Below are positions 3,175 to 54,736 of a DNA stretch of 64,000 nucleotides, one piece after another. The DNA lies in contig JAGXRP010000066.1 of the NCBI GenBank assembly GCA_018335795.1, positions 94,317 to 158,316 of the forward strand. The letters are read 5' to 3'. Both the position numbers and the translations under genes were made by a program. The notes under the pieces were generated by a model. The model saw nothing but the letters and a program-made list of their open reading frames with translations, did no database searches and was not told the origin of the DNA. Source of the DNA: Desulfobulbaceae bacterium. GTDB taxonomy: Bacteria > Bacteroidota > Ignavibacteria > Kapaibacteriales > UBA2268. The stretch's first letter is position 1; each line of letters begins with the position of its first letter.

Positions 3175-3264
3175 TTATTTAAAAAAAATTGAAGAAGTTA
3201 TTAATTAAATTATATGACGAAAAGAAAAATTAAATGATGTAACATATAAATTTTTCGGGAAAGT

Positions 3265-6879: not shown

Positions 6880-7390
6880 TTACTTTTGTGTTAGTTTGAT
6901 ATAAAGAAAGTGCTAATTTACTAAAGATTTGATAGAATGTTTTATAAAAGATTGGGAAATTTTAAAAAAAATGAAAAAAAATTTGGTTCATAGCACATTT
7001 TGAGTTATTTTTAAAGTGCAGTAAAAGGGAAGTGTATATTTTAAATAGTAGAATTATAATGACATCTAGCAAACGAGGCGTTTTCAACGCCTTTTCGGGT
7101 ATTAAAATCACAATAGATGGGACAAAAGCAGTATAAAAATTTATACCATATATATATATGTACTTTTTTTTTGAACAATTTTAGGAATGTTTAAAAACTT
7201 TTTTGATTATTACGATGAAATATTGTAAATTCGATTGATATTTTAAGGAGAAAAAGCAAAAGTTTTTTCTGTTTTGTGCATGAAGCATATTGGCATGGTA
7301 TTTGCAAATAAGTTATTTGAATTTTTTCGAGATTTTTAACAATAGAATGGAACAAAGTTTTAACATATTTTTAATAGGAGTAATGACTGT

Positions 7391-7984
7391 ATGAAAAGAT
7401 TTCTTGCGTATTTCGCAGTCTTAGGGTTGCTCGCAGTGTTGTTTACAACAAGCGCGTCCGCTCAAGGCTTAAAGCTGGAGAGATCTGTAATCGGGAGTGG
7501 TGGCATGGTTGCTGCCCAAAATAATACCGAATACAGCTTAAACGGCGTTACAGGTCAATTTGCCATTGGTACATTGACCGACCAGAGTCCCGGCTCTCAA
7601 AATTGGGATTTGAATCAAGGCTTCTGGGTTCCCGGTCCACAAATAGTTAATAGTGTGGAAGACAATAACCCTTTAGCTAAAAACGACCTGTTCAACTACC
7701 CTAACCCGGTAAACAGGAATACTACAATTGAGTACTATCTGCCATCTGCTGCATACGTGACATTAACTGTTTACGATATGACAGGTAATCGCGTAAAAGT
7801 ACTCTTTGACGGATACCAATCAGGTGGAACCCAGACAATGGATTGGGATACCAAAGCAGACAATGGCGTCGAACTAAGTTCTGGTTCATATTTGTACGAA
7901 ATACAAGTTCGTTCATCTAATATGGCAGGAGCAGACACATTTAAGAGTTTCAGTAATAGAAACATTATGGTTATCGTAAGATAA
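7391..7984 (+). CDS. Small secreted protein with T9SS (Por) C-terminal sorting domain
   Basis: Signal peptide (MKRFLAYFAVLGLLAVLFTTSASA). The C-terminal ~80 aa match the T9SS type-A CTD pattern (NYPNPVNRNTTIEYYLPSAAYVTLTVYDMTGNRVKVLFDGYQSGG...YLYEIQV). AGGAG sits 8 nt upstream of the ATG. Confidence 0.6.
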   Translation: MKRFLAYFAVLGLLAVLFTTSASAQGLKLERSVIGSGGMVAAQNNTEYSLNGVTGQFAIGTLTDQSPGSQNWDLNQGFWVPGPQIVNSVEDNNPLAKNDLFNYPNPVNRNTTIEYYLPSAAYVTLTVYDMTGNRVKVLFDGYQSGGTQTMDWDTKADNGVELSSGSYLYEIQVRSSNMAGADTFKSFSNRNIMVIVR

Positions 7985-8047
7985 TTTCATGAAAAAGAAA
8001 ATTAAACATATTATATTTTGTGTAACAACATTTAGGAGTATCAAATA

Positions 8048-11000
8048 ATGAAGAAACTACTTCTTCTCAGTTTTGTACTATTATCATTGATTATAGCCTC
8101 AGTTGGCTCGGTAATGTCTCAATCGAGACTTATCAACTATCAAGGTAATATTTTAGACCAACAAAGCAAACCTTACGAAGGTTCTGCTCAAATGACATTC
8201 GAACTCTACGATAAAGAGTTCGGAGGCTCGCAATTATGGAGTGAAATCCAAAACGTAACAATGAATAAAGGTTATTTCAATGTTTACTTGGGTTCAAATA
8301 CTCCTTTCCCTGCTAACTTTAGCTTCAACCGCGAATTGTGGGTGCAAGTTACAGTTGGTACAAGCGCTCCATACCCGAGATCACCTCTCACTATGGTGCC
8401 TGCTGCTTTCGTTTCGGAAGTTGCTTCTTTAGCAAGATTTGCTGAAGACATTCCTGACGGTTTAGTGAATTTGAACAAATTGTCTAATGAAGTTAAGATT
8501 ATGGGCGGCGACCTTACAGGTACACTTCCAAATCCAAGACTCAGACCAGGTGCTATTTTAGAAGGCATCGAGGACGGTTCGATTACTCAAAGCAAATTGG
8601 CTCCAAATGTAACTACAAGACCTTCAGGTCCTGCAAGTGGTGACCTTACTGGTTTCTATCCAGACCCATTAATTGCTCCAGGAGCTGTTAATACTTTCAA
8701 AATTGCAGATGGTGCAGTTACTACAGAAAAAATTGCTGATTACGCAGTTACTTACAACAAATTCCAAAATGCTTTAGGTCCTGTTGGTACAATTCTCGGA
8801 TGGGATGGTACACAATGGATTGAAACTTCAGTTCCTGAATGGGAACTTGGTAAAATTGTTGAAGTATATGCCGGTGACGGTCTTTATGTTAATGAAATGA
8901 GTTCATATTATGGAAACGGTTTCTTTGATGTTCAAGTTGGTATCGCCGAATCAGGTGTAATTACTTCGAAAATTGCTGACGAAGCTGTAACTTATGGTAA
9001 ATTACAAAATGCTTACGGACCTGTTGGAACTATCCTTGGATGGAATGGTACAGAATGGATTGAAACTAACGTCCCTACTTGGGAAACTGACGCCGTAATC
9101 GGTAACGAAGTTTTAGACGCAACTCCTAACAGAGGTTTATTAAGAGCAGGTTTAGGTACTTTAGCTTCACCTTTTACATTAGGTATTGCTGATAATGGTG
9201 TTGTTAATTCGATGATTGCTAACCAAGCTGTATCATTAAATAAATTGGCCAATGGCTCAACAGGTGGTCAAGTTATGTATTGGAACTCAGTATTGGGTCA
9301 ATGGATGCTTTCTGCCGGTTCGGCTCCTATGGATAATAATGTAATCAGATGGGTTGACAATGGAACAACAAGACAACCACAATGGACAAGCGATGATGCA
9401 ATCGTTGGTAACGAAGTTGTTAATGCAACTCCGATGGGTGGTTTAGTACGTGCAGGTGCAGGTACAGAAGCATCTCCTTATACATTAGGTGTAATGCCTG
9501 GTGGAATTACTGAACCAATGTTAGCACAAGGTGCAGTTTCATTAAGCAAATTAGCTCCCGGTAATCAAATCGGTCAAATTATTTGGTGGGATGCTCTTAC
9601 CAGCCAATGGAGATATTCAACCGGTGCTGCTCCAACTCAAGACTATGTAGTTAAATGGGTTGATGCTGGTGGTTCTTTGACTCCACAATGGGCTCCAGAC
9701 GATATGACTATTCCTTATGAAAAATCAATTACTGAACATGTTCAAACATTATTTGCTCTTACTAATAATGGTAATAGCGATGTAATGTCTCTTACAACTA
9801 CAGGTACTGGCGACGGTTTGATGATTAATATGCCGCAAGATTTACCAGGTGGAGGACATGCTTTACATTTAAATGGTGCAGGTTTCCTACAACCAGCTTT
9901 AAATGTTAATGTAGAATCTGAATACGGACTTCCTAATGGTGCCGGTACTGTAAATGCAACTATTAATACTTTGGATGCTACTTCTGCAGGTTTCAAAATT
10001 AATACTGTTGTTAATGATGACGGTAACAATGCTTATGATGTAGATGGTTTGCAATCATTCTTGACTGTAAACAATGCTGTAAATAATGGATACTATACTG
10101 GTACTTGGAGTTTTGCAGAAACAGATAACGGTATTGCTACCGGTGTTTGGGGCGAAGCCGAAGGTATGAACGCTCAAAGTAACTTTGGTGTAATTGGTAG
10201 TGCTGATGATGCTGCTGTTTCTAACATCGGTGTTTTAGGTGTTGCAAATGCTCCTGTTTACCAAGATTATACTACTATGTTCCCTGCCGGATTCGGTGCA
10301 GGTGTTACTGCATTGAACGAAGGTGGCTCATTCATGGATTATGGCGTATTCGCTTTAGTTAATGGTGAAGCTACAGGTGCTTATGTTGAAGCTGAAGATG
10401 CTGTAGCCGGTGTATTCACTAATAATAGTGATATGTCAGAAACAGTATTAGCTTTCAACCAAGGAAACGGCGATGTTGTTGTCGGTATTGCTAACGAAGG
10501 TTCAGCTTTTGTTGGTTTTAACGAAAGTGCTATGGGAACTGCAGTTATTGAAAACATTGGAACAGGTTCAGCTATTGAAACAGCTTCTATGGGTACTGAT
10601 TTCCCAACTGTATTGGCAGAAAATCTTAATGATGGTCCTGCTGCATGGTTCGTTGGTATGAATCCACAAGCAGATGGCTTCGCGAATAATAATTCAGTAG
10701 CTGCTGTAGTAAATATGAATAATGGTCGTGCTTTGTATGTAGAAGGTGGAGCAGCTAACGATGAAAATGGTGGCAATCCTTACTTCCAAGATCCAGCTAA
10801 CAATGACGACGCTTCTTTAATCGTTGTTAACACAGCTTATCAAGGTGGCGCTCCTTGGGGTACTGCAATCAAAACTTACGGTGACATTTGGGCTAACTCA
10901 ACTATCGGTGCAAGCCAATTAGTAGCTCTTGACGCCCTTGTTATCGGCGACCCATTAGGTTTGAACACTACTTTGTATCCTCCAATGTATCCAGGCGATC

Positions 11001-13717
11001 CTTTGGTTATTAACTCAGATGTTGAAATTCAAGGTGACTTGTATGTAGATGACATTTGGGCTGACGAAGTAAATGCAAACGTTCTTAACGCTGCTTTAGG
11101 CGTATTTGACAATTTGCAAGTTAATATGAATGCTAACGTTGATGGTAACACTACTCTGAACACTTTAGCTACTTCAGGTAACGCTACTGTTGGCGGTACT
11201 TTCGGTGTTACAGGCGTTACAACATTAAGTAACAATTTAATTGTTAACGGTACTTCGACATTGAATGGTGCAGCTCAAGTTAATAATACATTGAATGTAA
11301 CAGGTAATGCTGTACTCAATTCCGCTCCCGGCATGCAAAACACTACAGTTGACAACTTGAACGCTTTGGGCGCTCTAGATGCTGTTGGTGCTATCACAGG
11401 TCAAAGCACTTTGGGTATTGCAGGTAATGTTACTCTTAATACTGCTCCTGGTATGCAAACTACTACTGTTGACAACTTGATTGGTAATGGTACTGCTACA
11501 ATTGCCGGAGCAACTATAATTAACAATACTTTAAATGTAACCGGTCTTTCAACATTATCGAACACTCAAGTTAATGGAACATTAGGTGTAACCGGAGCTA
11601 CTACTTTAGGTAGTACTTTAACTGTTGCAGGTTTGACTCAAATTAATAACAATTTGAACGTAACCGGTAATGCAAATGTTAATGGTAATGGTATTTTCGG
11701 TGGTAACATTAGTGCAGTAAATGGCATCTTCAGTGGTAATATTTCTGCTGTTAATGCTACTTTAAGCGGTACTTTGACTGTAAACGGTGCATACACTCGT
11801 TTGTCAAACACTACTGCTTTACAAGTACAAGGTGGCGACGCCGGAACTCTTGGTGAGCTTTTAGTTAGCCGCGGTGCCGGTTTATCACCTGAATGGACTA
11901 CTTCTATTCCTTATCTTGAAGTTGTTAACCTTGATGTATTAAACAATTTAAGTGTTGGTAATGATACTGATATGATGGGCGACCTTACAGTTGCCGGTGA
12001 TGTATTCTTAAACACTAATGGTCCTGGCTTCTCTACATTCGTACAAGAACTCGTAGTTGCTCAAGATGCGGTTGTCGGTAACGATCTAGCTGTTGGTAAC
12101 GATGGTGTATTCGGTAATGACCTTTTGGTTGTTGGTGATGGAACTGTTGTTGGTGATGCTGATGTATTTGGCGATTTAGAAGTTATGACTAACACTTCAT
12201 TACTTGGTACTTTAGATGTAACCGGTGTTTCTACTTTTGCAAGCGAAGTTGAATTCAACGGAGCTAATGTTGCATTCTCACCGGGTACTGAAGTACTTGC
12301 TTGGGATCCTACATTAATGACAGCAAACTTCGAAGGCGATGCCGGCGATTTATTCGTTAGTCGTGGTGCAGGTTTATCACCTGAATGGACTGACGAACTT
12401 CCTGACCTTACAGTTTCAGGTCTTTTGACTACTATGAACTTGCACGTTACTAATGATGCTCAAATTGATAATGACTTAACTGTAGGTAATGACATCGTTG
12501 TTACAGCCGGTGATGTTGATATCCAAAATGGTAGCTTAAACGTTGGTTTAGATGTAACTGTTGGTAATGACTTAGCAGTTATCAATGATGGTATCTTCGG
12601 AAACGATGTTATCATTCTTGGTGGTGACCTTGACGTAATTGCAGGCGATGCAAATGTTGCTGGTGATGTAAACGCTACAAACGTTAACACAACTAACAAT
12701 GTTAATGCCGGTAATGATGTAAACGCCACTAATAATGTAAACGGTACTAATTTGAATGCATCTAACAATGTTAATGCAACAAACAATGTAAACGCTACAA
12801 ATGTTAATGCAACTAACAATGTTACTGCTCAAAACAACTTAGTATCAGTTAATAATACAGTTGTTGGAAATAACTTGCTTGTTACTAACAATGCTACTAT
12901 CAGCGGAAACTCACATGTATTGGGTAATTCATTAGTAAACGGTACATTAACTGTTGACCAAAATTCATTGTTCAAACAAAGCGTTACTATTAATCAAAAT
13001 TTAACGATTGACCAAAATCTTACAGTTACAGGTTCTTCAACATTCGGTAATACAGTCAGTATTAATAATGCTGATTTGAATATCACTAATGGTGGTATAA
13101 ATGTAATCGGAGATGATGTATTCTTTGGTAACCCTGTAGGATTTAACAATCCTTCAGCATTCGAAGACCTCTACGTACGTGGAAATATCGAAGCTGACGG
13201 TATGATTTTCGGTGCTATCAACCCAGGTTTGACTCCGGGTTCGGTAACATTCGGGGGAGCAGTAGGTCAAATCGCTGAAGATAATGCTAACTTGTTCTTC
13301 AATGACGCAACAAACAGATTGGGTATTGGAACTAATACACCTGCTCAAACTCTTGATGTAAACGGTACAATGAACGTAAGTGGTGCTTCAACTCTTGCTG
13401 CTGCTACTTTGAGCGGTAACTTGACTGCAAATCGCAGAATGATTCACGGTTATACAACTGCAGCTAATTTAGCAGCACTTGTTGCCGCGATAAATAACGG
13501 TACAACTGTTATTCAATACCAAACTGCTAACGCTCTCGAAGCTAACCTCGTAGGTGCTTTGCCTGCAGGAACAACCGGACAAATTATCTATATAATTAAC
13601 AATACTTCAATTGGTTCGATTAGTGTTGGCACTCCTGTCAACCCAAGAACAATTGTTCAAAGCCAAATGGTTGCCTTAATTTACAATGGTACAAATTGGA
13701 TTCCAATGGCTAACTAA
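8048..13717 (+). CDS. Giant secreted fibrous adhesin-like protein (1889 aa) with tail-fibre-like repeats and a C-terminal domain shared with the next gene
   Basis: Signal peptide. Repeated modules with the motif I(T/A)xxKIADxAVTxxKL follow, each trailed by a Trp-rich block (GPVGTILGW(D/N)GT(Q/E)WIET(S/N)VP(E/T)WE). Next comes a long run of 'NxTGxxxLNxxxTxxNL' fibre repeats and an Asn-rich hexapeptide repeat (NVNATN). There is an internal duplication (VSRGAGLSPEWT occurs twice). The C-terminal ~70 aa are conserved with the 13873-17580 protein. Confidence 0.7.
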   Translation: MKKLLLLSFVLLSLIIASVGSVMSQSRLINYQGNILDQQSKPYEGSAQMTFELYDKEFGGSQLWSEIQNVTMNKGYFNVYLGSNTPFPANFSFNRELWVQVTVGTSAPYPRSPLTMVPAAFVSEVASLARFAEDIPDGLVNLNKLSNEVKIMGGDLTGTLPNPRLRPGAILEGIEDGSITQSKLAPNVTTRPSGPASGDLTGFYPDPLIAPGAVNTFKIADGAVTTEKIADYAVTYNKFQNALGPVGTILGWDGTQWIETSVPEWELGKIVEVYAGDGLYVNEMSSYYGNGFFDVQVGIAESGVITSKIADEAVTYGKLQNAYGPVGTILGWNGTEWIETNVPTWETDAVIGNEVLDATPNRGLLRAGLGTLASPFTLGIADNGVVNSMIANQAVSLNKLANGSTGGQVMYWNSVLGQWMLSAGSAPMDNNVIRWVDNGTTRQPQWTSDDAIVGNEVVNATPMGGLVRAGAGTEASPYTLGVMPGGITEPMLAQGAVSLSKLAPGNQIGQIIWWDALTSQWRYSTGAAPTQDYVVKWVDAGGSLTPQWAPDDMTIPYEKSITEHVQTLFALTNNGNSDVMSLTTTGTGDGLMINMPQDLPGGGHALHLNGAGFLQPALNVNVESEYGLPNGAGTVNATINTLDATSAGFKINTVVNDDGNNAYDVDGLQSFLTVNNAVNNGYYTGTWSFAETDNGIATGVWGEAEGMNAQSNFGVIGSADDAAVSNIGVLGVANAPVYQDYTTMFPAGFGAGVTALNEGGSFMDYGVFALVNGEATGAYVEAEDAVAGVFTNNSDMSETVLAFNQGNGDVVVGIANEGSAFVGFNESAMGTAVIENIGTGSAIETASMGTDFPTVLAENLNDGPAAWFVGMNPQADGFANNNSVAAVVNMNNGRALYVEGGAANDENGGNPYFQDPANNDDASLIVVNTAYQGGAPWGTAIKTYGDIWANSTIGASQLVALDALVIGDPLGLNTTLYPPMYPGDPLVINSDVEIQGDLYVDDIWADEVNANVLNAALGVFDNLQVNMNANVDGNTTLNTLATSGNATVGGTFGVTGVTTLSNNLIVNGTSTLNGAAQVNNTLNVTGNAVLNSAPGMQNTTVDNLNALGALDAVGAITGQSTLGIAGNVTLNTAPGMQTTTVDNLIGNGTATIAGATIINNTLNVTGLSTLSNTQVNGTLGVTGATTLGSTLTVAGLTQINNNLNVTGNANVNGNGIFGGNISAVNGIFSGNISAVNATLSGTLTVNGAYTRLSNTTALQVQGGDAGTLGELLVSRGAGLSPEWTTSIPYLEVVNLDVLNNLSVGNDTDMMGDLTVAGDVFLNTNGPGFSTFVQELVVAQDAVVGNDLAVGNDGVFGNDLLVVGDGTVVGDADVFGDLEVMTNTSLLGTLDVTGVSTFASEVEFNGANVAFSPGTEVLAWDPTLMTANFEGDAGDLFVSRGAGLSPEWTDELPDLTVSGLLTTMNLHVTNDAQIDNDLTVGNDIVVTAGDVDIQNGSLNVGLDVTVGNDLAVINDGIFGNDVIILGGDLDVIAGDANVAGDVNATNVNTTNNVNAGNDVNATNNVNGTNLNASNNVNATNNVNATNVNATNNVTAQNNLVSVNNTVVGNNLLVTNNATISGNSHVLGNSLVNGTLTVDQNSLFKQSVTINQNLTIDQNLTVTGSSTFGNTVSINNADLNITNGGINVIGDDVFFGNPVGFNNPSAFEDLYVRGNIEADGMIFGAINPGLTPGSVTFGGAVGQIAEDNANLFFNDATNRLGIGTNTPAQTLDVNGTMNVSGASTLAAATLSGNLTANRRMIHGYTTAANLAALVAAINNGTTVIQYQTANALEANLVGALPAGTTGQIIYIINNTSIGSISVGTPVNPRTIVQSQMVALIYNGTNWIPMAN
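12664..12840 (+). repeat. In-frame Asn-rich 18-nt (hexapeptide NVNATN-like) tandem repeat within the 8048-13717 CDS
   Basis: Translation reads NATNVNTTNNVNAGNDVNATNNVNGTNLNASNNVNATNNVNATNVNATNNVTAQNN. The nucleotide sequence repeats aatgt(t/a)aa(t/c)gc(a/c)ac(t/a)aac units. Confidence 0.6.
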
Positions 13718-13731
13718 TAGTTAACAATAAT

Positions 13732-13760
13732 AGCATAGTCTGATATTATCAGACTATGCT
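13732..13760 (+). terminator. Hairpin terminator downstream of the 1889-aa gene
   Basis: Perfect inverted repeat agcatagtctgata-tt-atcagactatgct, 15 nt after the stop codon. Confidence 0.55.
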
Positions 13761-13872
13761 ATGATTTTATAGAAATTTAGCTTTTAAAGAAAGTATTTTT
13801 ATGGTATAGTATTTGAGATAAGTTAGCTTAAATTGAAAAATAATTGTTTAATATAATAGAGGTGCAAACCTT

Positions 13873-16800
13873 ATGAAAAAATTTCATATTCTTATTTTTG
13901 GTGTAATCTTCTTCATGGCAACAAGCTTGACACAAGCTTTGCCTGAGATATTTTACACCAATTTTGCGAGAACGACCGGTGGCGGATTAGTCCTAAACTC
14001 GAACGTTGACGTAAGAATAACCATTTTCGACGGCGCTACCGAGGTTTATAAAGAAACCCATGCAGGTATTACTACAGATGAATTTGGTTTATTTACAGTT
14101 CCCGTTGGTGGCGGGGCTCCGGTTATTCCTTTTAATAACGCTATGTACGATGCTTTGATTGCTTCAAACAATCTAAATATCTACGCAGAAAGTGATGCCG
14201 GTGACGGTTACAGATTTATTGAATTACGTTCACTTTTGAATACAGCATTAAGAAATGCTGAAGTTCAAGGAATAGTGACTTTACAAAGTGCTTACGATGC
14301 TGGTAACGAAATCGAAGTAGTTGTTGGATTCCCTGTTGACCTTACCGGTACAGGCTTAATCCAATCGGCAGCTTCAGTTGCTGACATCAATACAAATGGT
14401 CCTTCAACATTGACTACAAAACAATATGTTGACGACGCTATTGCTGCAATTTTCCCATTGCCACATATTACTGAAGGCGATGCTATTGAAATTTTACCCG
14501 ATGGTTATTATGATGGTCAAACTACTCAATCTATTGGTGTAGCTGACAACACTATTTCTAACGTAAAAATCCACGATAATACGGAATTCCAAGAAGTCGA
14601 AGCTTTAGGCGACGGTTTTGCAGATGGAACTGATGTTGGTTCTTGGTCAGTTACAAACTCTAACAGAGTATTAAATTTTGCCGGTGTTGGTTTGACTAAT
14701 GTAACTCGCGACGGTAATACAATTTTAATTGACGGTTCTGATAACTGGGGTTTGCAAGTTGTCGAATCAGATGCAACTCTGATTGGTGATGGTACTATTG
14801 GTAATGAACTTGGCGTTAATCAAGATTTCCCTTTCGTGTGGACTTCTTACCACCAATTTATTCCTGATACTGACGAACCTGCAATTGCTCTTGACGGAAG
14901 TAGTTCATTAACTAATCCTACTTTGATTGCCGTCGGTAATGCAGACCCAGCCGTTGTTGACTTCATGTTCGACGGTGAAATGGTCCTTTTGGGCACTGAT
15001 GATACTGATGCTAATGCTGAATTGACTGTTTACGGTTCAACTCAAATGTTAGGTCAAAAAAATGACGCTCAACCTGAACTTTATGTAGAAGGTGACGTTG
15101 CTGTTACCGGTTCTGTTGATGCTGAACGCGGATTCTTTACTTTTGATAATACAGGTAACGCAGGTGCATTTACTATTATGGCTAATGCCACCGGTGATAC
15201 ACCTTCGAGCCCTACTTTCCCAACTGTAGCTCAAGCTGTTACCGCTATAGCAACTTATTCAGGAGTTGCTCCAAATATGACTGATATGCTTGTTGCAAAT
15301 AATGGCTTAACAAACGCCGGAGCAGGGATATTAGCTGTCGGTACTTACGGTGGTTCACGTTCTGCTAACTTGGTTGCAAATGTCGGTACGGTTGGTCATG
15401 CTTATAATTCATTGAGTCCTTATAATTCTCATGGTATTGTAGGTATGGTTACTACTACTTTATCCGGTGCAACTGAAATTGGAACTGCATTAGGTTTAGG
15501 TATTAACTCCGGTATTACAGGTATCAATTTAGGTGTTGCTGCAAATGATTATGCAGGTTACTTTATTGGTAATGTTAACGTTGATGGCGATTTTAATGGT
15601 ACTGGTAATGCAGTATTTGAAATGGATGTAAATGTTCAAGGTAATGCAGATGTTGATGGTGATTTGAATGCTGATGGTGCAACTACTTTAGGTGGCACTT
15701 TAGATGTAGCTGACAACGCAGTATTTGCAATGGACGTAAATGTTCAAGGTAATGCAGATGTTGATGGTGATTTAAATGCTGATGGTGCAACTACTTTAGG
15801 TGGCACTTTAGATGTAGCTGACAACGCTGTATTTGCAATGGACGTAAATGTTCAAGGTAATGCTGATGTTGATGGCGATTTAAATGCTGATGGTGCAACT
15901 ACTTTAGGTGGCACTTTAGATGTAGCTGACAACGCAGTATTTGCTATGGACGTAAATGTTCAAGGTAATGCTGATGTTGACGGTGATTTGAATGCTGATG
16001 GTGCAACTACTTTAGGTGGCACTTTAGATGTAGCTGATAACGCAGATTTTGCTATGGATGTACAAATTGATGGCATTTTGAATGTTGACGGTACTTCTAA
16101 TCTTAATGGCGATGTAAACCTTGGTGATGTAAGTACAGACAATGTTGTATTCAATGCAATGGTTAATAGTGCTGTAGTTCCATCTATGGATAATACATAT
16201 TCATTAGGTACTGATGCTAACCGTTGGGCTGATGTTTATGTTGGTCCTGCCAGCTTGAATATTGGTACTTCGGGTAACAATGCCGTAATTAGCTATGATT
16301 TAGGCAACAATTGGGTTGATATTAATACTGACCTCAATGTACAAGGTACAGTTTATGGTACAACTTTGAATGGTGCATATACTGAAGGTTCTGTTCTTTT
16401 CGGAGCTGCCGATGGTAGCATTACTGAAAATAATGGAGAACTTTTCTGGGATGATGCAAGTTCATACTTAGGTATTGGTACAGACGCTCCAGCTTCTAAA
16501 TTGCACTTAGTCGCACCTTTAGATGTAGCTTTAATTATCGAAGGTACTCAAGGCGACAGCAATCCTGACGTTTTGATTGACGGTGAAGTATTGATTTTGG
16601 GAAGTGTTAATGGTGATGCTGAATTTTGGATGAATGGTGGCGACGGTATGCTACTTGATGGTGGCGCAAGTTTGCACATTACTAACGGCGACGGTATCCT
16701 TTTAGACGCTGGTGCCAGTATGATTATTGATGATTTGGGAACTTTAAACGTTGATGGCGATGGTACATTTAACAATGACCTTTATGTTTCGAATAATTTG

Positions 16801-17580
16801 TTCGTTACTAATGACGGTGATTTTGGTAATGATGTTATCGTTGGAAATGATTTGAGTGTTACAGGTCTTGCTACTTTTGAAAATGTAATGGTAAATGAAT
16901 TTGCTGAATCAGCAAAAACAGGCGCTGAAATTGCAGCTGAAGCAAGTGATGATTTGTTTGTAACTAAAGATTACGTTCAAGGTGGTCACTTCGGTAGTTT
17001 CAATACTTTAATTGCATTCAATCCTGCTTCAGGACCTGCGATTACTGCTACTTCATCCGATGCGACTGCTCCTACTGTTACAATCGAAAATACTCACCCT
17101 GATGGTACTGCTTTGCAAGTTCAATCGAACAACGCTTCGACTACTGCATTCGAAATTCCAACAGGTAACATGAGTATTGGTAATGGTCAGTTAATCGTTT
17201 CGGCAAATGCCGGTATCACTTCTACTCCTCCCGAAGGTCAAGGTCCTGCTCTTATTGTAGGTAACTTTGGTACTTCAGGCGAAAATGGTGGTGCTATATT
17301 TGTCACTGAAGGTCATACTGCTTTATCATTTAATTCTTTTGATGAAACAACCACTGACTATTCTGAAGTAACTTCAACTGTTATTGATATTAATGCAGGT
17401 GCTGCTATGGTAATCACTGATTTACCGGGAACAAATGTTTCTGCTGATATGCCAGGTACATTACTTTATATCATTAACTCAGGTACATTTACAATTACTT
17501 TACCTGATGCAAGTACAATTCCTGCAGGTACTGTTGCTACTTTTGTCAACAACGGGTCTGCTTGGTTCAGAATTAACTAA
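13873..17580 (+). CDS. Giant secreted fibrous adhesin-like protein (1235 aa) with perfect 36-aa tandem repeats and the shared C-terminal domain
   Basis: Signal peptide. The N-terminal domain resembles that of the preceding protein. A block of near-identical 36-aa repeats (NAVFAMDVNVQGNADVDGDLNADGATTLGGTLDVAD) follows, then Gly/Asp/Asn-rich fibre repeats. The C-terminus (LLYIINSGTFTITLP...TVATFVNNGSAWFRIN) aligns with the C-terminus of the 8048-13717 protein (IIYIINNTSIGSISVG...MVALIYNGTNWIPMAN). Confidence 0.7.
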   Translation: MKKFHILIFGVIFFMATSLTQALPEIFYTNFARTTGGGLVLNSNVDVRITIFDGATEVYKETHAGITTDEFGLFTVPVGGGAPVIPFNNAMYDALIASNNLNIYAESDAGDGYRFIELRSLLNTALRNAEVQGIVTLQSAYDAGNEIEVVVGFPVDLTGTGLIQSAASVADINTNGPSTLTTKQYVDDAIAAIFPLPHITEGDAIEILPDGYYDGQTTQSIGVADNTISNVKIHDNTEFQEVEALGDGFADGTDVGSWSVTNSNRVLNFAGVGLTNVTRDGNTILIDGSDNWGLQVVESDATLIGDGTIGNELGVNQDFPFVWTSYHQFIPDTDEPAIALDGSSSLTNPTLIAVGNADPAVVDFMFDGEMVLLGTDDTDANAELTVYGSTQMLGQKNDAQPELYVEGDVAVTGSVDAERGFFTFDNTGNAGAFTIMANATGDTPSSPTFPTVAQAVTAIATYSGVAPNMTDMLVANNGLTNAGAGILAVGTYGGSRSANLVANVGTVGHAYNSLSPYNSHGIVGMVTTTLSGATEIGTALGLGINSGITGINLGVAANDYAGYFIGNVNVDGDFNGTGNAVFEMDVNVQGNADVDGDLNADGATTLGGTLDVADNAVFAMDVNVQGNADVDGDLNADGATTLGGTLDVADNAVFAMDVNVQGNADVDGDLNADGATTLGGTLDVADNAVFAMDVNVQGNADVDGDLNADGATTLGGTLDVADNADFAMDVQIDGILNVDGTSNLNGDVNLGDVSTDNVVFNAMVNSAVVPSMDNTYSLGTDANRWADVYVGPASLNIGTSGNNAVISYDLGNNWVDINTDLNVQGTVYGTTLNGAYTEGSVLFGAADGSITENNGELFWDDASSYLGIGTDAPASKLHLVAPLDVALIIEGTQGDSNPDVLIDGEVLILGSVNGDAEFWMNGGDGMLLDGGASLHITNGDGILLDAGASMIIDDLGTLNVDGDGTFNNDLYVSNNLFVTNDGDFGNDVIVGNDLSVTGLATFENVMVNEFAESAKTGAEIAAEASDDLFVTKDYVQGGHFGSFNTLIAFNPASGPAITATSSDATAPTVTIENTHPDGTALQVQSNNASTTAFEIPTGNMSIGNGQLIVSANAGITSTPPEGQGPALIVGNFGTSGENGGAIFVTEGHTALSFNSFDETTTDYSEVTSTVIDINAGAAMVITDLPGTNVSADMPGTLLYIINSGTFTITLPDASTIPAGTVATFVNNGSAWFRIN
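15610..16075 (+). repeat. Tandem 108-nt (36-codon) repeat, about 4.3 copies, nearly identical at nucleotide level, inside the 13873-17580 CDS
   Basis: Units start at about 15610, 15718, 15826 and 15934, with a partial unit at 16042. Copies differ only at a few synonymous or near-synonymous positions. Confidence 0.8.
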
Positions 17581-17590
17581 TAATATTATT

Positions 17591-17626
17591 CAGAGCTGTC
17601 CGGCTTCTTAAAGTCGGATAGCTCTG
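17591..17626 (+). terminator. Hairpin downstream of the 1235-aa gene
   Basis: cagagctgtccggc-ttcttaaa-gtcggatagctctg, a 14-bp stem with two G-U pairs, 10 nt after the stop. The T-tract is weak. Confidence 0.4.
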
Positions 17627-17880
17627 AAATAATAAATCTCTCATATTGAGGCGAGTTAACGGCTCGTTTGAATATGGGAGATAAAGAAAATAAACTAAAA
17701 CATGGATGAAGATTAGTGTATTTAAAGAATTTTCTTTGATATTGTAGTGAAAATCGTTATTTTTAAAAATTGATTTATGGGAAAGCTTATGAAGACTGAA
17801 TTTACTTGCTTCAATGCGTACATGCAGGACATATCTAAAACAATTAAGGATATTTTGTTAATATTTGTGGGAGATTTTTT

Positions 17881-26800: not shown

Positions 26801-29490
26801 ACGATGTTTGTCAATTCGGTGATTTACAATATGTTGTAGATTTTACTCCTGTAGCTACTACTGTTACTTGGCAATTCTGGAATGGTGTTGTATGGGCAAA
26901 TGTTGTTAGTGGCACTTCATTAACAGCTAACACATTCAACGTTCCTACTATCACAACAATAGGTGGAACAACTACTTTAGATTTAACGAATGTATCTATT
27001 GCTATCAATGGATGGGATGTAAGAGTTGCTCTTGATAACGGTGTATGCGGAACAGTTAATTCAACTTCTGCTAACATGGGAATCTTTACAGTTCCTTCTG
27101 TTCCTAATCCAATTGGTGCACAGAACATCTTGTCGCATAAATTCGATGTTACTTATCCTGCAGACCCGAATGCACTTACTTGGGATATCCAAGTTGCTGA
27201 TGATGCCGGATTTAGTAATATTGTTTTCTCGACTACAGGTGCCGGTGCTTCACCATTTACAGGTATGACTGATTGTATTCTTGACCCTGCGTCAACTTAC
27301 TACTTCAGAGTACGTGCTGTTAATGCTTGCGGTTCATCTGCATGGAGTACTCCTTCAAACATCGTTACTTTAGACCCAACTGTTACAAATATGGCATGGT
27401 TAGGTGGATTTGACGGTGACTTCGGTACTGGTGACCTTGGAACTCCAACTGCATCACAAACATTGAGAATAACTTACTATCAATTAGACGCTGACATTGC
27501 AATGACAATTCCTGCCGACTTCGAAGCATTTATCGGTGGAAATTGGGTTAATGGTGTTCAGAACTTAGGTTTGACGCTTTATCTTGGCACTTCAGGTACT
27601 CCTTTGACAAGAGATATCTTAGTTCGTTTCAACGCTACAGTTTGTGGTGTTATTGATGAAGATATTACAATTGCTTCTAACGAATTATGTGTTGGTAATA
27701 CCGGCATTACAGTTCCTTCTATAGCAGTTGAAGGATTCGGTAAAGTTCCACAACCTACTGTTCAAGCAAGCGCTGTGTACTTTACAGCTAACGATGACAC
27801 TGAATTTGACTTTACTTGGACTAATGGTAATGGTAATGGTAGATTAGTAACAATCGTCGAAGATGGCGCAACTCCTTGGTCACCAATAGACTTTACTGAC
27901 TATAGCAGTATTGCAAGCACTACATTATCTGGTAGTAATGAAATTACAACCGGTAACTGGATTGTTGCTGCAGGTAGCGGTTCAGGTCCATTGACTGTTG
28001 ATGGTTTGACTGCCGGCGTAGTTTACTATGCTTATGTATTCGAATTCAACGAATGTGCTTCTGGTACTGAAGATTACTTATTACCTGGTGCAGTTGGTCA
28101 AGTTTACCAATTGTCATTCTTGACAGACGAACCTTCTACTCCAATGAATGGTATTCCTAATCAAACTTCAGGAGTAGCATTTAAACAATCAAATAATACA
28201 ACTGGACTTGCAATCGAAGTATTGTTGCTCGACCGTGCAGGTGACCCGATTGCTAATCCTTTCGCAGGATTTAGCGTATCTATCGCCGGTGACCCAGCTC
28301 TTGGTACTGTTACAGTAAACTCCGGTTCAACAACTATGGCTAATGGTGCTGCAAGTACAGCTGGCACTCCAATGACAATCACTTGGACTTATGCTAGCGG
28401 TATTTTGAATGCAAACTTAGAAGCTTCAACTGCTCAACTTGGTGTTCTGCCTGGCGTATCGAATGACTTCGTTCTTAACGTTGCTCCTCCGACTACACAA
28501 GCTAAGATCATCCTTTGGGTTGGCGTACCTTGTATAAACAATACTGAATTCAAATGGACTAACGGTGACGGTGCTTCAAGACTTGTTGTAGGACGTGATG
28601 GTTCTTTACCTGAACTTCCAACTGACTTGACTGATTACTCAGCACTTGCTAATACTAATTTCTCATTAGCTGGTACTTTGGGAACTTCTACAAAAGTTCT
28701 TGCTGTTATCAATGGTAGTGGAAACAGTATTACAGTTACTGGATTAACTCTTAACCAAACATACTACTTCCGCGTTTACGAATTTAACGGTACTGGCGGA
28801 TTAGAAAGATACTTAACTGACAACGCATCATTCAACCCGCGTTCACGTAAGATTACTTGCTCAGATGGAAACAACTTGTTTGACCTCATCGTTGAAAACT
28901 TCAACGTTGTATCTGGCAAAGGTAAAGGAATCGTTTCTTGGAATACTGAATATGAACAAAATATCTCAGGTTTCGAAGTTTCGAGAATTGACCTTACTGA
29001 AGGTTCAAGCATGAATCCAATGCTCGTAGGTACTTATATGAATGCGCAAGAACTCGTTGCTGCCGGTAACACTACTACAGGTCAAACTTACAAATATACT
29101 GACAACACAGTGACTCTCGAAGTTGGCAGAACATACTTGTATCAATTGACTGCAGTTGCTTATGACGGCACACGCATCGATGTTGCTGAATCAGAAATTA
29201 CAATTACTGACGATATCATTGCAGGTCCGGCTGAATTCAGCGTAACTCCTGTTCAAGTTATCAACAATGAAGCTGCTTTCAAAGTTATCACTAACACTAC
29301 TCAAGATGCTACTATCGAACTCTTCGATGTAATCGGTAACAGAGTTGCTGTAATAGCAAACGGTATCATGTTAGGCGTTGGCTCGAACGAATTTAGCTGC
29401 CCGGTTGACAAACTTGTTAACGGTACATACATCATCTCCGTAAACGGTAAAGATGTATCAGCTATTCAGAAGTTCCAAATCGCAAGATAA
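17881..29490 (+). CDS. 3869-aa secreted multidomain protein: right-handed beta-helix (pectate-lyase/NosD-like) repeats, Cys-containing Ig-like repeats, Fn3 domain, T9SS C-terminal sorting domain
   Basis: Signal peptide (MKKLSTLLTLLVCFILFSTSAWSA). Many 'NNT(I/F)xN' and 'IxxNxI' beta-helix rungs (for example NNTINNTVATAHG, IISNNTISNAG, IRNNAIYDN) and repeated 'NFWG(T/N)DxGP' motifs. The region around aa 2700-3050 has ~95-aa repeats, each with paired Cys (VCAGT...C, VCEGS...C). An Fn3-like segment follows (YYFRVRAVNACGSSAWS). The C-terminus (TIELFDVIGNRVAVIANG...NGTYIISVNGKD...KFQIAR) fits the T9SS type-A CTD pattern. Confidence 0.75.
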   Translation: MKKLSTLLTLLVCFILFSTSAWSATWIVDNAGGGDFTTIQAAVNAASGNDIIYVNGSGTNYTENVNIPGGKNQLSIIGVNDGSGFPVLDGSGVTNPKVAFRVSSDNVTIQNMVIQNYNYGGATNVDFGSAQRGVGIESLIASSGHNFSDNTITNCNWGIYVREGNSISVKNNTINNTVATAHGSGYPNTGGTGIAFVSAGVSLDENEIQNNSVSTSAFYGVFFGRRLDGGTPVNGDNVIISNNTISNAGIGNNGFAIYLNNIKPDDALRIEDNTLNNNNAGLRLAQNTTANTDINVFNNEFNNTVSSIEVQTAALFSGGTLYDIMFNNGNIFDEGTPASTPGAVAALDVLDTEVVSNGTNRFIRNRFANAIVDGEGYLSAAAASTNVKVYAMAGFYPSEVALVSSNPANGQNMLITGEVDGSGNNLAKAQGDAIGSTIFTINPLSNLTVTFENIDVELNLNVTQYGIYTGSSNTTVNLCNFTTANVISATGIAAIATGTATSNFSFDQNTVNGFFATGLIIDQNNVTISCNDFNFVTTTNVIIDVTDWNADVANITGGEIINNTFTSVFGSTATNIRVIYPTVGSGGLEIGTNGNGNFFMNGDFAIDLTLMANGQVTIGYNNFQEADYTDWIDNSAAFDVNAGWNYWEILGINPNAEISAMITGAGAANVFFLPIYSSGVDTDLAGCGFQADLTSIWTPVYTAVNVGDPLTDPDALFFWTIEDALADPNTGIGSGGAPERYAVYLYNNGTLTENNPLSVAYPMWIGGAPAQASNLNVDPLPGFWTVETANDMAPLFSVIEPGTALNPVAFDSFTLFPSDVTLNSANNAILVDIVGAPNIMSYLNVTNCIFDVADANQSNAIFVDNTNTVSIDNFFIYNNTFMKNDAGYALRVETPITSTDVQFLNNNILWNIAGVTPGFSIYFEDGVDGLTVLGNNFEAGILLESVLNDIDNVEIGSTGTHLLGFLQGNTFFNPNVSGLDYGIFIESPIGGGDVAATDFRIVQNSFQDITEAIYFDVEPTEITLANIFINENDFENIGASSIVLDGIPPYAGQIDARFNFWGTDDGPIALMTAPTWHDNSVPPIQIIANSYNYDVNNAASPSGVLYEADYINFVYWWQNFNANMGPGSHTGDQFAPFVNSNGDVFASLIVALDNTTTGNDIFITPGEFVESNTIQQPANPYTVSIYGDVNGGTYFRPDGLNANGTYAAEYMFYFSGDVTISLYHLHLEDYRPSPTNQDEDVFAGVFVNGDDLVNPSIVRFYNGSISGINFLTNGVGFFAEGNANVRVENSDLTENEFAGIWIEEDALNGPPTGSFINNMIDGDGVSNYGIGSAGETYVTIQYNTIFDNTGASAGIFSSGIGAGSLTIEYNQIFDNTYGIELGVTGAGDNYSAAIIRNNAIYDNVTAGLIYFPDVSSVVTAENNFWGNDAGPASLGDLGLGDSQRNGFFDLGITQGNAVVDGNLDSEIDYLPYRLTSGFTPNISMIAGARFAPIVRTNSANIPLGFYANIMSADADVTSGSDEGIYVYGGNYADLFYASKDEVRFIGKNRMAPYAASWLINPQGSATNAWGSAKGADVNGPLFITHNVPGSPYNAEIDALTEISIQGFTFDATDKTATVDGPYTGNYNDGMYLSGAADEVTVNQNTFLADDDDNSINFVVGTATNWTITNNLFDASASTPANDPIAVNVTNGLFGGAHSDILIDNNDIIEGAVNIYAGNNDVSGIMVSFNEFTDSKAGVIASAVGGFGSQLSNIYISNNVFYDYPTIDQFAFGILAGTPDNAVATDWTTDIMFTENFVGVDPLDVANTMPAVGFQNATPLLTYTSAITATCNWWGSVNGPTFALNPGGDGATVSERAYMAPWLSGSANNATFGFDPMDACDAGIRVWVNNTGDPLDQFIIFPGLQMAVDDPNVVNQTYEFIFVHDDYTTGGTPGFLNESTTIANWNINATWFLSAETAANEIGLAGNLEFAGTGFAYNLLMLSPMRVQGDLILDNIGCQGWLQLLNSDFTVEGHITEGYFLTVAVSCQVNTTGMGYLVKENVVTGGINNFPIIGPGATTGTPAEFVVNSGGFTLAQNNILKVRANAIDPVTAKGMGQNGFDINNLWSVDFTNNAAMNPNFAMQLRNYDNSMYDVNFDNVTSYGAFWDMAPGATQWATKKSNSSWNGSDGIQVTNLNLESGLTDWAIFSGPTSFALSNEPNQARNIMWYSTTDRKIDFKWTRNDANAQYYAILAREGSMIAAPSTFTPTPISVYVPYTCPVLPNGPWTCSPGHLNFADGNVNSVDPNFNWANSLFHGDQAPTDVRVVKIGKYGPGAIFDASVDNLAQGTFYEFFVANFNYGDGSTAVADMESGADGMANYNLNPNTLNPRTRKTMPAVYMTIDFNGGFATNVANQPNRVWAYSVIGSYNPMDIYNNIVKNNGVLGSYVVENQYNGDDLLGGHVAEVCDDGSMSWTANNIRLHFKNYGRYTGSGWIIKYSENNDTKTFTTPSIAAFTDRTRTANTDYYLVSAYDGDGKVAYKYDNMQKIRFQVDEPTDVTLTETPVVMPTCEGNNVTLVSAPNSYPNATFDRWEFDNGGGWTTFTTSLPGGSTVTGGSTITITLDYGDNGTDIRAVYISNSICDLGLEFNSNAIELEIYDATLTGLQPYTTAPAVVDNEAPGVCEGANVTFQADAGGPFTSPNSLTFIGWEYFDGVWNPLADGALVGATISGSATQTMTITGATLAMNGYDFRAVWQNGDCNVLETIETNLEVIEQPVISQQPVVTPVTVCAGTPIDVDAIATPFTSVQWQISNDNSTWVDLVDGLAFAYMGGNAVIAGATTQNLTITPADNTWDAFYVQVVYTNEGAEGDECITTSSSVQLDILLAPIVTPFTSPVTVCEGSNNSYTAVVTNPYNTPVTWEYFDGTWNSLGAGVVDGTTVSFTGAGNETLNLNNIDLMWDGYQVRVTATNGTCSDTEGFTINVDELPVVVTNPIDDDVCQFGDLQYVVDFTPVATTVTWQFWNGVVWANVVSGTSLTANTFNVPTITTIGGTTTLDLTNVSIAINGWDVRVALDNGVCGTVNSTSANMGIFTVPSVPNPIGAQNILSHKFDVTYPADPNALTWDIQVADDAGFSNIVFSTTGAGASPFTGMTDCILDPASTYYFRVRAVNACGSSAWSTPSNIVTLDPTVTNMAWLGGFDGDFGTGDLGTPTASQTLRITYYQLDADIAMTIPADFEAFIGGNWVNGVQNLGLTLYLGTSGTPLTRDILVRFNATVCGVIDEDITIASNELCVGNTGITVPSIAVEGFGKVPQPTVQASAVYFTANDDTEFDFTWTNGNGNGRLVTIVEDGATPWSPIDFTDYSSIASTTLSGSNEITTGNWIVAAGSGSGPLTVDGLTAGVVYYAYVFEFNECASGTEDYLLPGAVGQVYQLSFLTDEPSTPMNGIPNQTSGVAFKQSNNTTGLAIEVLLLDRAGDPIANPFAGFSVSIAGDPALGTVTVNSGSTTMANGAASTAGTPMTITWTYASGILNANLEASTAQLGVLPGVSNDFVLNVAPPTTQAKIILWVGVPCINNTEFKWTNGDGASRLVVGRDGSLPELPTDLTDYSALANTNFSLAGTLGTSTKVLAVINGSGNSITVTGLTLNQTYYFRVYEFNGTGGLERYLTDNASFNPRSRKITCSDGNNLFDLIVENFNVVSGKGKGIVSWNTEYEQNISGFEVSRIDLTEGSSMNPMLVGTYMNAQELVAAGNTTTGQTYKYTDNTVTLEVGRTYLYQLTAVAYDGTRIDVAESEITITDDIIAGPAEFSVTPVQVINNEAAFKVITNTTQDATIELFDVIGNRVAVIANGIMLGVGSNEFSCPVDKLVNGTYIISVNGKDVSAIQKFQIAR

Positions 29491-29510: not shown

Positions 29511-29540
29511 AAGCCCGCTCATTTGAGCGGGTTTTTTTTT
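29511..29540 (+). terminator. Rho-independent terminator after the 3869-aa gene
   Basis: aagcccgctcatttgagcggg followed by T9 (gggttttttttt), 20 nt after the stop. Confidence 0.8.
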
Positions 29541-29593
29541 GCTTTATTTTTATTTTTGCATTGTATTATTAATAAATATATTATATTGAAGTC

Positions 29594-54221: not shown

Positions 54222-54298
54222 CGGGATGTAGCGCAGCCCGGTAGCGCACCACTTTGGGGTAGTGGGGGTCGGCGGTTCAAATCCGCCCATTCCGACCA
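54222..54298 (+). tRNA. tRNA-Pro (anticodon GGG), CCA encoded
   Basis: The cloverleaf folds by hand: acceptor CGGGATG/CATTCCG, D-arm GCGC-AGCCCGGTA-GCGC, anticodon arm CCACT-TTGGGGT-AGTGG with anticodon GGG and G37, T-arm GGCGG-TTCAAAT-CCGCC, discriminator A plus CCA. It is close to E. coli tRNA-Pro(GGG). Confidence 0.9.
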
Positions 54299-54316
54299 AA
54301 ACAAAAACCCTTCCAT

Positions 54317-54345
54317 ATAGGGACAGAACAGCGTTCTGTCCCTAT
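54317..54345 (+). terminator. Perfect 13-bp hairpin directly downstream of tRNA-Pro
   Basis: atagggacagaac-agc-gttctgtccctat followed by aatattttt. Confidence 0.55.
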
Positions 54346-54468
54346 AATATTTTTGATAGATCCGAGGAAACTTCGGAAGTTTCCAAAGCTTCCGAAGTTT
54401 GGATTGCATGACTTCAGGTGTTACAACTGACGGAAAGAAGAAAATTTCTCAAAAAAAGTGAAATTTTA

Positions 54469-54499
54469 TTTGCACAGTTCAAAAAATTTTATATATTTG
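54469..54499 (+). promoter_or_regulatory. Consensus FCB-type promoter inside repeat unit 1
   Basis: TTTG-N19-TATATTTG. The predicted TSS at about 54506 is 30 nt upstream of a hairpin terminator. Confidence 0.5.
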
Positions 54500-54536
54500 C
54501 ATATTCCATTTTGTATGTTTAGAGCATTTTCCTACC

Positions 54537-54571
54537 AAAGCGAGCTATCCTTGCTCGCTTTAGTTTTTTTT
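54537..54571 (+). terminator. Rho-independent terminator of unit 1
   Basis: aaagcgagc/gctcgcttt stem followed by T8. Confidence 0.7.
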
Positions 54572-54669: not shown

Positions 54670-54736
54670 CATTGCCTTTAAAATTATTTTAAAAATATTT
54701 AATTTTTAAAAACAAAAACATGTAGAAGTTCTCGCA

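Follow-up and report, generated by a model that had tools for sequence, protein, structure and literature searches.

Organization of the cluster

The window considered here, by which we mean the whole stretch of 64,000 nucleotides that was analysed, carries on its + strand four co-directional open reading frames, P1 (197 aa), P2 (1889 aa), P3 (1235 aa) and P4 (3869 aa). The genes, the stem-loops between and behind them, and the sorting domains of the two outer proteins lie as follows.

7391..7984, + strand: P1, 197 aa, with a Sec leader, a passenger of ~75 aa and a T9SS type-A sorting domain
7697-7981 (aa 103-197), + strand: sorting domain of P1 (PF18962, TIGR04183, FlgD_ig)
8048..13717, + strand: P2, a fibre protein of 1889 aa with a Sec leader at aa 1-24 (from the open reading frame and its translation)
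13730..13762, + strand: hairpin with a 15-bp stem, directly 3' of P2
13873..17580, + strand: P3, a fibre protein of 1235 aa with a Sec leader at aa 1-22 (likewise from the open reading frame and its translation)
~17591-17626: hairpin after P3, similar to the one after P2
17881..29490, + strand: P4, 3869 aa, with a Sec leader, right-handed beta-helix regions and a sorting domain
29275-29475, + strand: T9SS type-A sorting domain of P4 (TIGR04183 24.0 bits, PF18962 25.1 bits)
~29512-29541: hairpin after P4 which, with the T-run behind it, makes a strong T-tailed terminator

The leaders of the four proteins, read from the sequence by eye, have a basic n-region that starts with MKK or MKR, a hydrophobic core and a small-residue cleavage motif. 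In the order P1 to P4 the putative cleavage motifs are ASA/QG, VMS/QS, TQA/LP and AWS/AT (the slash marking the cut). An original prediction made on this DNA had described these four co-directional genes with signal peptides, and its coordinates and sizes are exact. It had also proposed ribosome binding sites of the AGGAG type for most of them; AGGAG precedes P1 and P2, while the Shine-Dalgarno-like sequences upstream of P3 and P4 are GAGGTG and GGGAG respectively. The gap between P1 and P2 measures 63 bp and, because of this gap and of the positions of the stem-loops, the sequence suggests that P1 and P2 are co-transcribed and that attenuator- or terminator-like stems set P3 and P4 apart. The G+C content of the cluster (0.37-0.40) is the same as that of the rest of the window, and Rfam and tRNA scans of the locus return no matches. 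Lipoprotein anchoring of the proteins was dropped as a candidate because no lipobox Cys stands behind the leaders, and PEP-CTERM/LPXTG-type sorting was dropped because there is neither a C-terminal transmembrane segment nor a profile match.

The T9SS type-A domains that had been proposed for the first and the last protein are borne out by profile scans. The domain of P1 passes both type-A models (PF18962 at 29.4 bits against a cut-off of 27, TIGR04183 at 32.3 against a cut-off of 23) and matches FlgD_ig at 42.1. That of P4 is weak when the full-length protein is scanned; when the last 100 aa are scanned alone, it passes TIGR04183 (24.0, cut-off 23) and falls just below PF18962 (25.1, cut-off 27). 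The ~75-aa passenger of P1 has no family match and is found in P1 orthologues only; P1 itself is the first gene of the cluster throughout, being present in the related loci L001-L004, L008 and L009. The body of P4 contains several right-handed beta-helix regions (Beta_helix, E 5.9e-14) and also matches fn3, with Cys-containing Ig-like repeats and FN3-like modules in addition, and an orthologue of 3867 aa is present in L001/L002. On the minus strand, 35305-37560 encodes a third type-A cargo protein, and therefore the organism evidently uses T9SS.

The fibre bodies of P2 and P3

We turn to the two middle proteins, whose parts in front of the C-terminal domain are these.

8120..8422 (aa 25-125), + strand: N-terminal Ig/FN3-like beta-sandwich of P2, also in P3 and in the mini-protein P0022
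8435..9727 (aa 130-560), + strand: DUF5907 repeat region of P2, with ITxxKIADxAVTxxKLA motifs and Trp-rich modules
11045..13147 (aa 1000-1700), + strand: Asn/Gly/Val-rich beta-helical shaft of P2, with PHROG matches and tandem repeats
13229..13372, + strand: neck of P2, GSVxFG...LFxDDxxNRLGIGTxxPA, the best P2-P3 BLASTP segment
13939-14262, + strand: N-terminal Ig-like domain of P3
15610..16062, + strand: tandem repeat of P3, 4.2 copies of a 108-bp (36-aa) unit with 95% matches (Tandem Repeats Finder)
16165..16251, + strand: P3 motif DNTYSLGTDANRWADVYVG, also in phage tail and baseplate proteins
16384-16521, + strand: neck of P3, with the same GSVxFG...LGIGTxxPA motif as P2

Directly behind the leader stands the N-terminal domain common to P2, P3 and P0022. 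Structure prediction gives it a generic Ig/FN3-like sandwich fold that points to no specific relative, and the N-terminal-domain alignment, when used in a word-indexed homologue search, brings up five short fragments only. The internal repeats that follow were located with Tandem Repeats Finder and with Pfam scans of segments. In P2, aa 130-560 scanned alone match PF19264 (DUF5907) at 49.8 bits (E 3.9e-13), well above the cut-off of 27, so that the ITxxKIADxAVTxxKLA repeats and Trp modules of the original prediction are DUF5907 repeats; in the P2 orthologue of L009, DUF5907 is faint in the precomputed Pfam list. The P2 shaft contains repeats of the NVNATN hexapeptide type at nt 12690-12828, and its DNA includes tandem repeats. 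The shaft matches two PHROG families of unknown function, phrog_5070 and phrog_7964, at E 1e-12 to 1e-11, and gives weak matches to the LpxD-type left-handed beta-helix.

The 36-aa repeats of P3 match PF04519 (bactofilin) at 35.5 bits against a cut-off of 27.9, in agreement with the beta-helical fibre repeats that had been predicted. Because P3 has a Sec leader and 1235 aa, and bactofilin is a cytoplasmic polymer-former, this likeness is, as far as the sequence goes, one of beta-helix repeat type only and not of family membership. Repeats of the bactofilin-like and LpxD-like kinds can also form single-chain helices, an observation that counts against reading the fibres as trimers. Further along P3, the region of DNTYSLGTDANRWADVYVG gives a weak End_tail_spike match (E 0.0096) in the middle of the protein and tblastn matches to marine viruses and to the 'baseplate wedge initiator' of Pelagibacter phage HTVC008M, and the motif LGTDANRWADVYVG weakly matches phage baseplate and fibre proteins. 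The neck motif is also found in P0001. When the C-terminal 190 aa of P2 are used in a word-indexed search, the one match is an unrelated fragment that shares this motif.

In Pfam scans, neither P2 nor P3 matches Beta_helix or a pectate-lyase family or shows a depolymerase signature, and sequence searches of the PDB, made with both proteins and with the domain profile, return nothing meaningful. An S74 intramolecular chaperone was dropped as a candidate, as PF13884 (Peptidase_S74) has no match in either protein.

Among the orthologues of P2, which are 1139-1740 aa long, the termini are the best-conserved parts: identity is 69-76% in the N-terminal domain, 60-70% in the C-terminal domain and 30-47% in the shaft, whose length varies. 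Orthologues of P3 go down to 33% identity. P3 itself corresponds to IAE98_12705 of a Candidatus Kapabacteria MAG, at 100% identity over 100% of the query; a single residue close to the C-terminus sets the stored sequence apart, and P3 has no match in an exact-sequence look-up.

The shared C-terminal domain

Both fibre proteins end in a domain of ~90-105 aa.

13415..13714 (aa 1790-1889), + strand: C-terminal Phage_depo_C-like beta-sandwich of P2, from PF25692 and the family alignment
17269..17577 (aa 1133-1235), + strand: C-terminal Phage_depo_C-like beta-sandwich of P3

The conserved domain of ~70 aa that the original prediction placed here is real, but it is longer and its two copies are less alike than had been supposed. 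They share 27% identity, with a Smith-Waterman z of 3.6 and a score that is reached by 7 of 2000 shuffles, and in a full-length P2-P3 BLASTP comparison the domain is overshadowed by the stronger match of the neck motif. The question is then "are the two domains related at all?" The modest pairwise score, together with the failure of profiles made from one type only (P2-type or P3-type) to match the other type directly, would agree with a chance or convergent likeness of two unrelated beta-rich tails; we hold this to be most improbable, because both single-type profiles reach the same intermediate C-termini (L010/L011, L012-14, L005 and L016) at the same terminal position with E of 1e-14 to 1e-3 in a database of 1143 ORFs, hhalign of the two profiles gives E 5.9e-5 (probability 65%, 44 columns), both types independently match PF25692, and the core motif G-x-[ILM]-[ILM]-Y-I-[ILV]-N and an invariant Trp near the end are in register across the family alignment. 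Since the two types match shared intermediates, their homology is supported at the level of sequence profiles.

A HMMER search of 1.84 billion representatives with a two-sequence profile finds 10 proteins at E<=1e-3, with every match at the extreme C-terminus. These matches, the P3 orthologues and the loci from the genome and metagenome scans make up the family. The carriers, about two per genome, are all fibres with no enzymes among them, and the domain ends at least 5 different architectures:

P2-type and P3-type fibres
P0022, a mini-protein of 227 aa that consists of leader, N-terminal domain and C-terminal domain only
fibres with Hep_Hag-like 'DRLFVVGNGT' repeats (P0019, L012-L014)
'TYTLPDNSGTIAL' fibres (L010, L011)
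a 950-aa protein of the MAG ELA738 (L005)
a fragment (L016) on a contig with 28% G+C

Two of these loci, L014 and L012, contain neighbouring paralogous fibres that are alike in leader and N-terminal module and unlike at the C-terminus. One member of the pair ends in the Phage_depo_C-like domain and the other in a domain homologous to the C-terminal head of the Legionella adhesin Lcl (PDB 8q4e, E 5e-9); in L014 the paralogue with this Lcl-type (DUF1566) head lies at 2604-3947. The C-terminal domain of the fibres is modular and is swapped among paralogues. In L005, which belongs to a different lineage, the 950-aa fibre with the domain is followed immediately downstream by a 2019-aa beta-helix protein with a strong PF18962 sorting domain.

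What kind of domain this is can be approached from profiles and from a predicted structure. The copies in the window match PF25692 weakly and over nearly its full length, P2 at 16.3 bits (E 0.014, profile positions 9-89 of 90) and P3 at 14.4 bits, below the cut-off of 25 bits. Within the family, 11 of the 16 members match it at E<=1 over nearly the whole profile, and two of them, P0016 (25.9) and P0021 (25.0), reach the gathering score of 25. The predicted fold is a beta-sandwich like the C-terminal domain of tailspike depolymerases, and its best structural match is a phage tailspike depolymerase. Further predicted similarities are to the N-terminal XD of CBA120 TSP4, to domains of the T4 gp9-/gp10-type, and to the glycan-associated domains of StcE and CpaA. 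Judged from these marginal scores and from one predicted structure made from 16 sequences, the domain appears to be a marginal, divergent and lineage-restricted branch of PF25692, the 'Phage depolymerase C-terminal beta sandwich domain'. It does not stand behind the catalytic right-handed beta-helix of a virion tailspike, as the shafts of P2 and P3 are of the DUF5907, bactofilin-like and LpxD-like kinds.

The T9SS models give a different picture. The type-A models PF18962 and TIGR04183, which P1 and P4 match when scanned likewise, find nothing in the domains of the window or in the 16 members (Pfam E<=10, NCBIfam E<=1), and the type-B models PF13585 (CHU_C) and TIGR04131 find nothing at relaxed thresholds in Pfam and NCBIfam. 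The NCBIfam scan of the domain brings up nothing related to T9SS, and the predicted fold retrieves no structure of a T9SS sorting domain. It had been predicted that the domain belongs to neither of these two T9SS types, and the scans agree. The same prediction had called the domain unassigned and had named a match to another characterised domain as evidence against itself; PF25692 is such a match, with the membership being marginal.

Role of the domain and of the fibres

We favour, with slightly better than even confidence, the reading that P2 and P3 are Sec-exported surface fibres made of phage receptor-binding-protein (RBP) modules and that their C-terminal domain forms a head that caps the fibre or binds a ligand. 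Behind the signal peptide, the conserved N-terminal Ig-like domain would be the cell-proximal attachment module. Next would come a shaft that varies in length, made of DUF5907 repeats, beta-helical repeats and the conserved 'LGIGT' neck, and then, by analogy with phage tailspikes, the C-terminal ~100-aa sandwich as the distal head. This head would probably cap or stabilise the fibre, which is itself probably trimeric, and it may bind a carbohydrate ligand. In the APK16_gp47 tailspike, the C-terminal sandwich contributes contacts between the trimer subunits (PMC10219094), and trimerisation and/or host recognition are the roles usually ascribed to depolymerase C-terminal domains (PMC10653864). 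The fibres would act with the small P1 and the giant beta-helix P4, both of them T9SS type-A cargo that T9SS would attach covalently to the surface, and P1-P4 together would make up a surface coat for adhesion or protection. Against this model stands the conservation of the P2 domain (60-70%), which exceeds that of the shaft (~30-47%) and is more readily expected of a structural, docking or sorting part than of a receptor-binding tip that evolves fast.

This conservation also bears on a second reading, in which the domain is a new kind of signal for outer-membrane translocation or anchoring, such as a fourth T9SS class that is read by T9SS or a dedicated shuttle protein. Every member found has the domain as its very last part, its small beta-sandwich form resembles that of the known sorting domains, and the fibre genes lie among T9SS cargo genes, both here and in L005. 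P2 and P3 have Sec leaders and no further recognisable export signal, being without a type-A or type-B sorting domain although their co-encoded partners use T9SS. A sorting class unrelated in sequence has a precedent in type C (the ChiA type, CDD cl41395), which is the C-terminal 100 aa of ChiA (PMC10202324). All the same, we consider a general sorting signal unlikely because the nearest relatives of the domain in sequence and fold are domains of phage tailspikes and fibres and not T9SS sorting domains, because the family is tiny with only about two carriers per genome, because these carriers are fibres without an enzyme, unlike typical T9SS cargo sets, and because paralogues exchange the domain for an Lcl-type adhesin head, which is how a functional head behaves. 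By this comparison the domain is probably not a secretion signal, and a fibre head is the more likely of the two. The original prediction had left a sorting or anchoring signal and a receptor-binding tip side by side; of these, the tip or head comes out favoured and the sorting signal weakened.

A related proposal takes P2 and P3 across the outer membrane via T9SS, either with the Phage_depo_C-like domain as a fourth signal class or by piggy-backing or docking on P1/P4. To this we assign a low probability. If it is true, the cluster would amount to a 'fibre plus anchor' surface-display module, complete in itself, that reuses phage receptor-binding-protein parts.

It is also conceivable, and in our estimate not probable, that the fibre is oriented the other way, with the C-terminal domain proximal to the cell and docked on the cell's own glycan (e.g., A-LPS) or on P4/P1, and with the N-terminal Ig-like domain distal. 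The XD and the T4 gp9-/gp10-type domains, to which the predicted fold is similar, are docking modules in branched tailspike complexes. The similarity to the glycan-associated domains of StcE and CpaA, the high conservation of the domain in P2 and the recurrence of the pairing with giant T9SS-anchored proteins would fit such an arrangement as well. Against it, the best fold match and the Pfam family are the C-terminal, i.e., distal, domains of tailspikes, and the N-terminal domain, which is no less conserved (69-76%), is common to P2, P3 and P0022, as fits a common attachment site. In the Lcl-type paralogue, the ligand-binding head is likewise the C-terminal part (PMC11162425).

Finally, the cluster could be the remnant of a prophage or tailocin, with P2 and P3 as tail fibres of a particle. 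The phage-like modules (Phage_depo_C, DUF5907, the End_tail_spike-like motif and several PHROG matches) speak for this, as do weak tblastn matches to structural genes of cyanophages, in the DUF5907 region of P2, and of pelagiphages. However, all four proteins have Sec signal peptides, the G+C content is native, and the scanned flanks contain no capsid, tail, portal, terminase or integrase family. The ORFs scanned in ~7 kb upstream (TonB-dependent receptor, RNase T, HAD hydrolase and RsmB) and in ~13 kb downstream (Kef-type antiporter, methyltransferases and fatty-acid oxidation enzymes) are of the housekeeping type or without a match. The order P1-P2-P3 is kept in five distinct loci of the Kapabacteria/Ignavibacteriae type, even where P3 identity falls to 33%. 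The gene rsmB adjoins the cluster in the four loci with upstream flank, the fifth contig (L008) beginning just upstream of P1, and P4 or its N-terminus follows P3 wherever the contig continues. An IMG/VR pattern scan with a P3-type seed gives no relative, and the C-terminal domain of P2 is without a tblastn match among 50,697 phage genomes. With housekeeping flanks, conserved synteny and empty viral scans, the prophage reading is therefore rejected, and we give it hardly any weight: within the scanned flanks the genes are not part of a phage structural module. The original prediction was right, for these flanks, that no phage genes are nearby, and its view of the proteins as surface proteins and not prophage fibres agrees with the same synteny, flanks and Sec leaders, the surface being their presumed location.

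We now compare the fibres with systems that are already known. With the phage depolymerase tailspikes of PF25692 (Acinetobacter phage Solidus gp83, PDB accession code: 24qj; APK16_gp47) they share a small C-terminal sandwich on an elongated beta-helical protein, and the sequence profile match in 11 of 16 members, two of them at the cut-off. Unlike the tailspikes, P2 and P3 are cellular, have Sec signal peptides and occupy a conserved chromosomal locus; no catalytic beta-helix of the pectate-lyase type is found in them, and the window copies score below the Pfam cut-off.

In Bacteroidota, 'tail fiber domain-containing' surface proteins with Peptidase_S74 are chromosomally encoded fibres with Sec leaders and phage-fibre-like repeats. 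Similar phage-fibre-like units, 'DRLFVVGNGT' and Hep_Hag-like, occur in P0019 and L014 of the present family. The difference is at the C-terminus, where the S74 domain is not detected and the Phage_depo_C-like sandwich is found instead.

T9SS cargo of types A, B and C (RgpB, SprB and ChiA) resembles P2 and P3 in having a Sec leader and a beta-rich C-terminus of ~70-100 aa and in coming from bacteria of the FCB group, and P2 and P3 adjoin genuine type-A cargo genes, P1 and P4. P2 and P3 differ from this cargo in that they match no type-A or type-B model and that their fold retrieves none, with the carriers being few and fibres only.

The Lcl adhesin of Legionella, secreted by T2SS, offers a parallel in overall design. 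It is a trimeric 'lollipop' whose DUF1566-containing C-terminal head trimerises and binds glycosaminoglycans, and it is bound back to the cell surface through its N-terminus (PMC11162425). It has in common with P2 and P3 the leader, the N-terminal attachment module, the repetitive shaft and the globular C-terminal head, and a paralogue, in L014, of the domain-bearing fibres itself ends in an Lcl-type head. In contrast to Lcl, the shaft of P2 and P3 is beta-helical with DUF5907 and not collagen-like, the fold of the head is different, and the partners use T9SS.

If P2 and P3 are indeed head-bearing surface fibres, they represent a known fold and family and not a new kind of system: cellular fibres with phage RBP parts that are kept beside T9SS partners. 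The result would then be a useful annotation, in which a rare and unlabelled C-terminal domain is placed in a known fold and family. Its main interest lies in the route by which P2 and P3 are exported and anchored. In the cluster, phage RBP modules (the tailspike-type sandwich, DUF5907 and the neck motifs) would have become fixed in the chromosome as Sec-exported fibres, retained across a little-known lineage (MAGs of Kapabacteria and of the Ignavibacteriae type) and always co-encoded with T9SS-anchored partners. The cluster provides a concrete case for two questions: how large fibres without a sorting domain arrive at the surface of T9SS-bearing bacteria, and what Phage_depo_C does outside phages.

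Upstream region, leaders and P1 passenger

The start of the cluster of secreted surface-protein genes (P1 to P4) contains the following features.

Window 6880-7390: divergent intergenic region between rsmB and P1, 511 bp
Window 7463-7696: P1 passenger (P1 aa 25-102), with the motif VIGSGGMV...TGQFAIGT...LNQGFW.P

This AT-rich intergenic region is unusually long. It carries a small GC hairpin (GGCGTTTTCAACGCC) as well as several hexamers that resemble promoter elements, and it probably serves to regulate the cluster. Downstream of it (window 7391-8130), the predicted mature forms of both P1 (ASA|QG) and P2 (VMS|QS) start with Gln, as do those of the related fibres at another locus, L014 (FA|QN). 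Bacteroidota proteins cleaved by signal peptidase I tend to start with Gln (pyroglutamate), and P1, P2 and the L014 fibres fit this habit.

No family match is found for the P1 passenger. Seen in P1 orthologues only, it is conserved in every Kapabacteria-type cluster, always in the leading position, and may serve the fibres as an adaptor or anchor.

Shafts and heads of the fibres

The shafts of the two long fibres, P2 and P3, contain repeats at the DNA level.

Window 12690-12828: AAT-rich 18/51-bp repeats in P2
Window 15610-16062: near-perfect 108-bp tandem repeats in P3 (4.2 copies, 95% matches)

Combining these repeats with the wide length range among orthologues (1139-1889 aa for P2, 1004-1486 aa for P3) suggests that shaft length changes by repeat expansion and contraction.

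We turn to loci that carry relatives of the C-terminal domain of P2 and P3, a Phage_depo_C-like domain.

L014:2604-3947 and L014:3976-5349: neighbouring paralogous fibre genes
L012:3-2843 and L012:2864-3853: neighbouring paralogous fibre genes
L005:7292-16320: fibre and cargo locus in MAG ELA738 (JBAXXL010000034.1)
L016:1-600: the most divergent member of the domain family (Ga0315316_10293879, 28% G+C)

Within each L014 and L012 pair the paralogues have a common leader and N-terminal module (QNVGINATG..PDNSAMLD..KGLLIPRMT), while one ends in a DUF1566 head of the type found in the Legionella adhesin Lcl (8q4e, E 5e-9) and the second in the Phage_depo_C-like domain. These pairs are a natural case of C-terminal head swapping.

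At L005, a 950-aa fibre gene encoding the same C-terminal domain lies directly upstream of the gene for a 2019-aa beta-helix T9SS type-A cargo. Just upstream are genes for a hybrid histidine kinase and a sigma-54-type response regulator, separated from the fibre gene by a short transposase-like ORF. The L016 domain is preceded by 'GEIDGVTIG / DGNIISSTDANGAINITPNGTG'-type repeats, on a contig of only 1.4 kb that could be cellular or viral.

Other genes in the window

Window 35305-37560 (-): T9SS type-A cargo protein, 751 aa (PF18962, 38.9 bits)
Window 43765-47004: full-length IcmF-type fused isobutyryl-CoA mutase (E 0 to PDB 4xc6)
Window 54222-57788: tRNA-Pro (GGG), then a 929-aa ORF with a BrxX/PglX-like adenine methyltransferase motif

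At this tRNA, a small island for defence or restriction-modification may have inserted; G+C dips to 0.34 nearby (window 58-60 kb). The mutase, encoded within a block of genes for acyl-CoA dehydrogenase and 3-hydroxyacyl-CoA dehydrogenase, is ordinary metabolism, with no relation to the fibre cluster. The 751-aa cargo, which has an arabinofuranosidase-like domain, shows that the organism also exports other proteins by T9SS.
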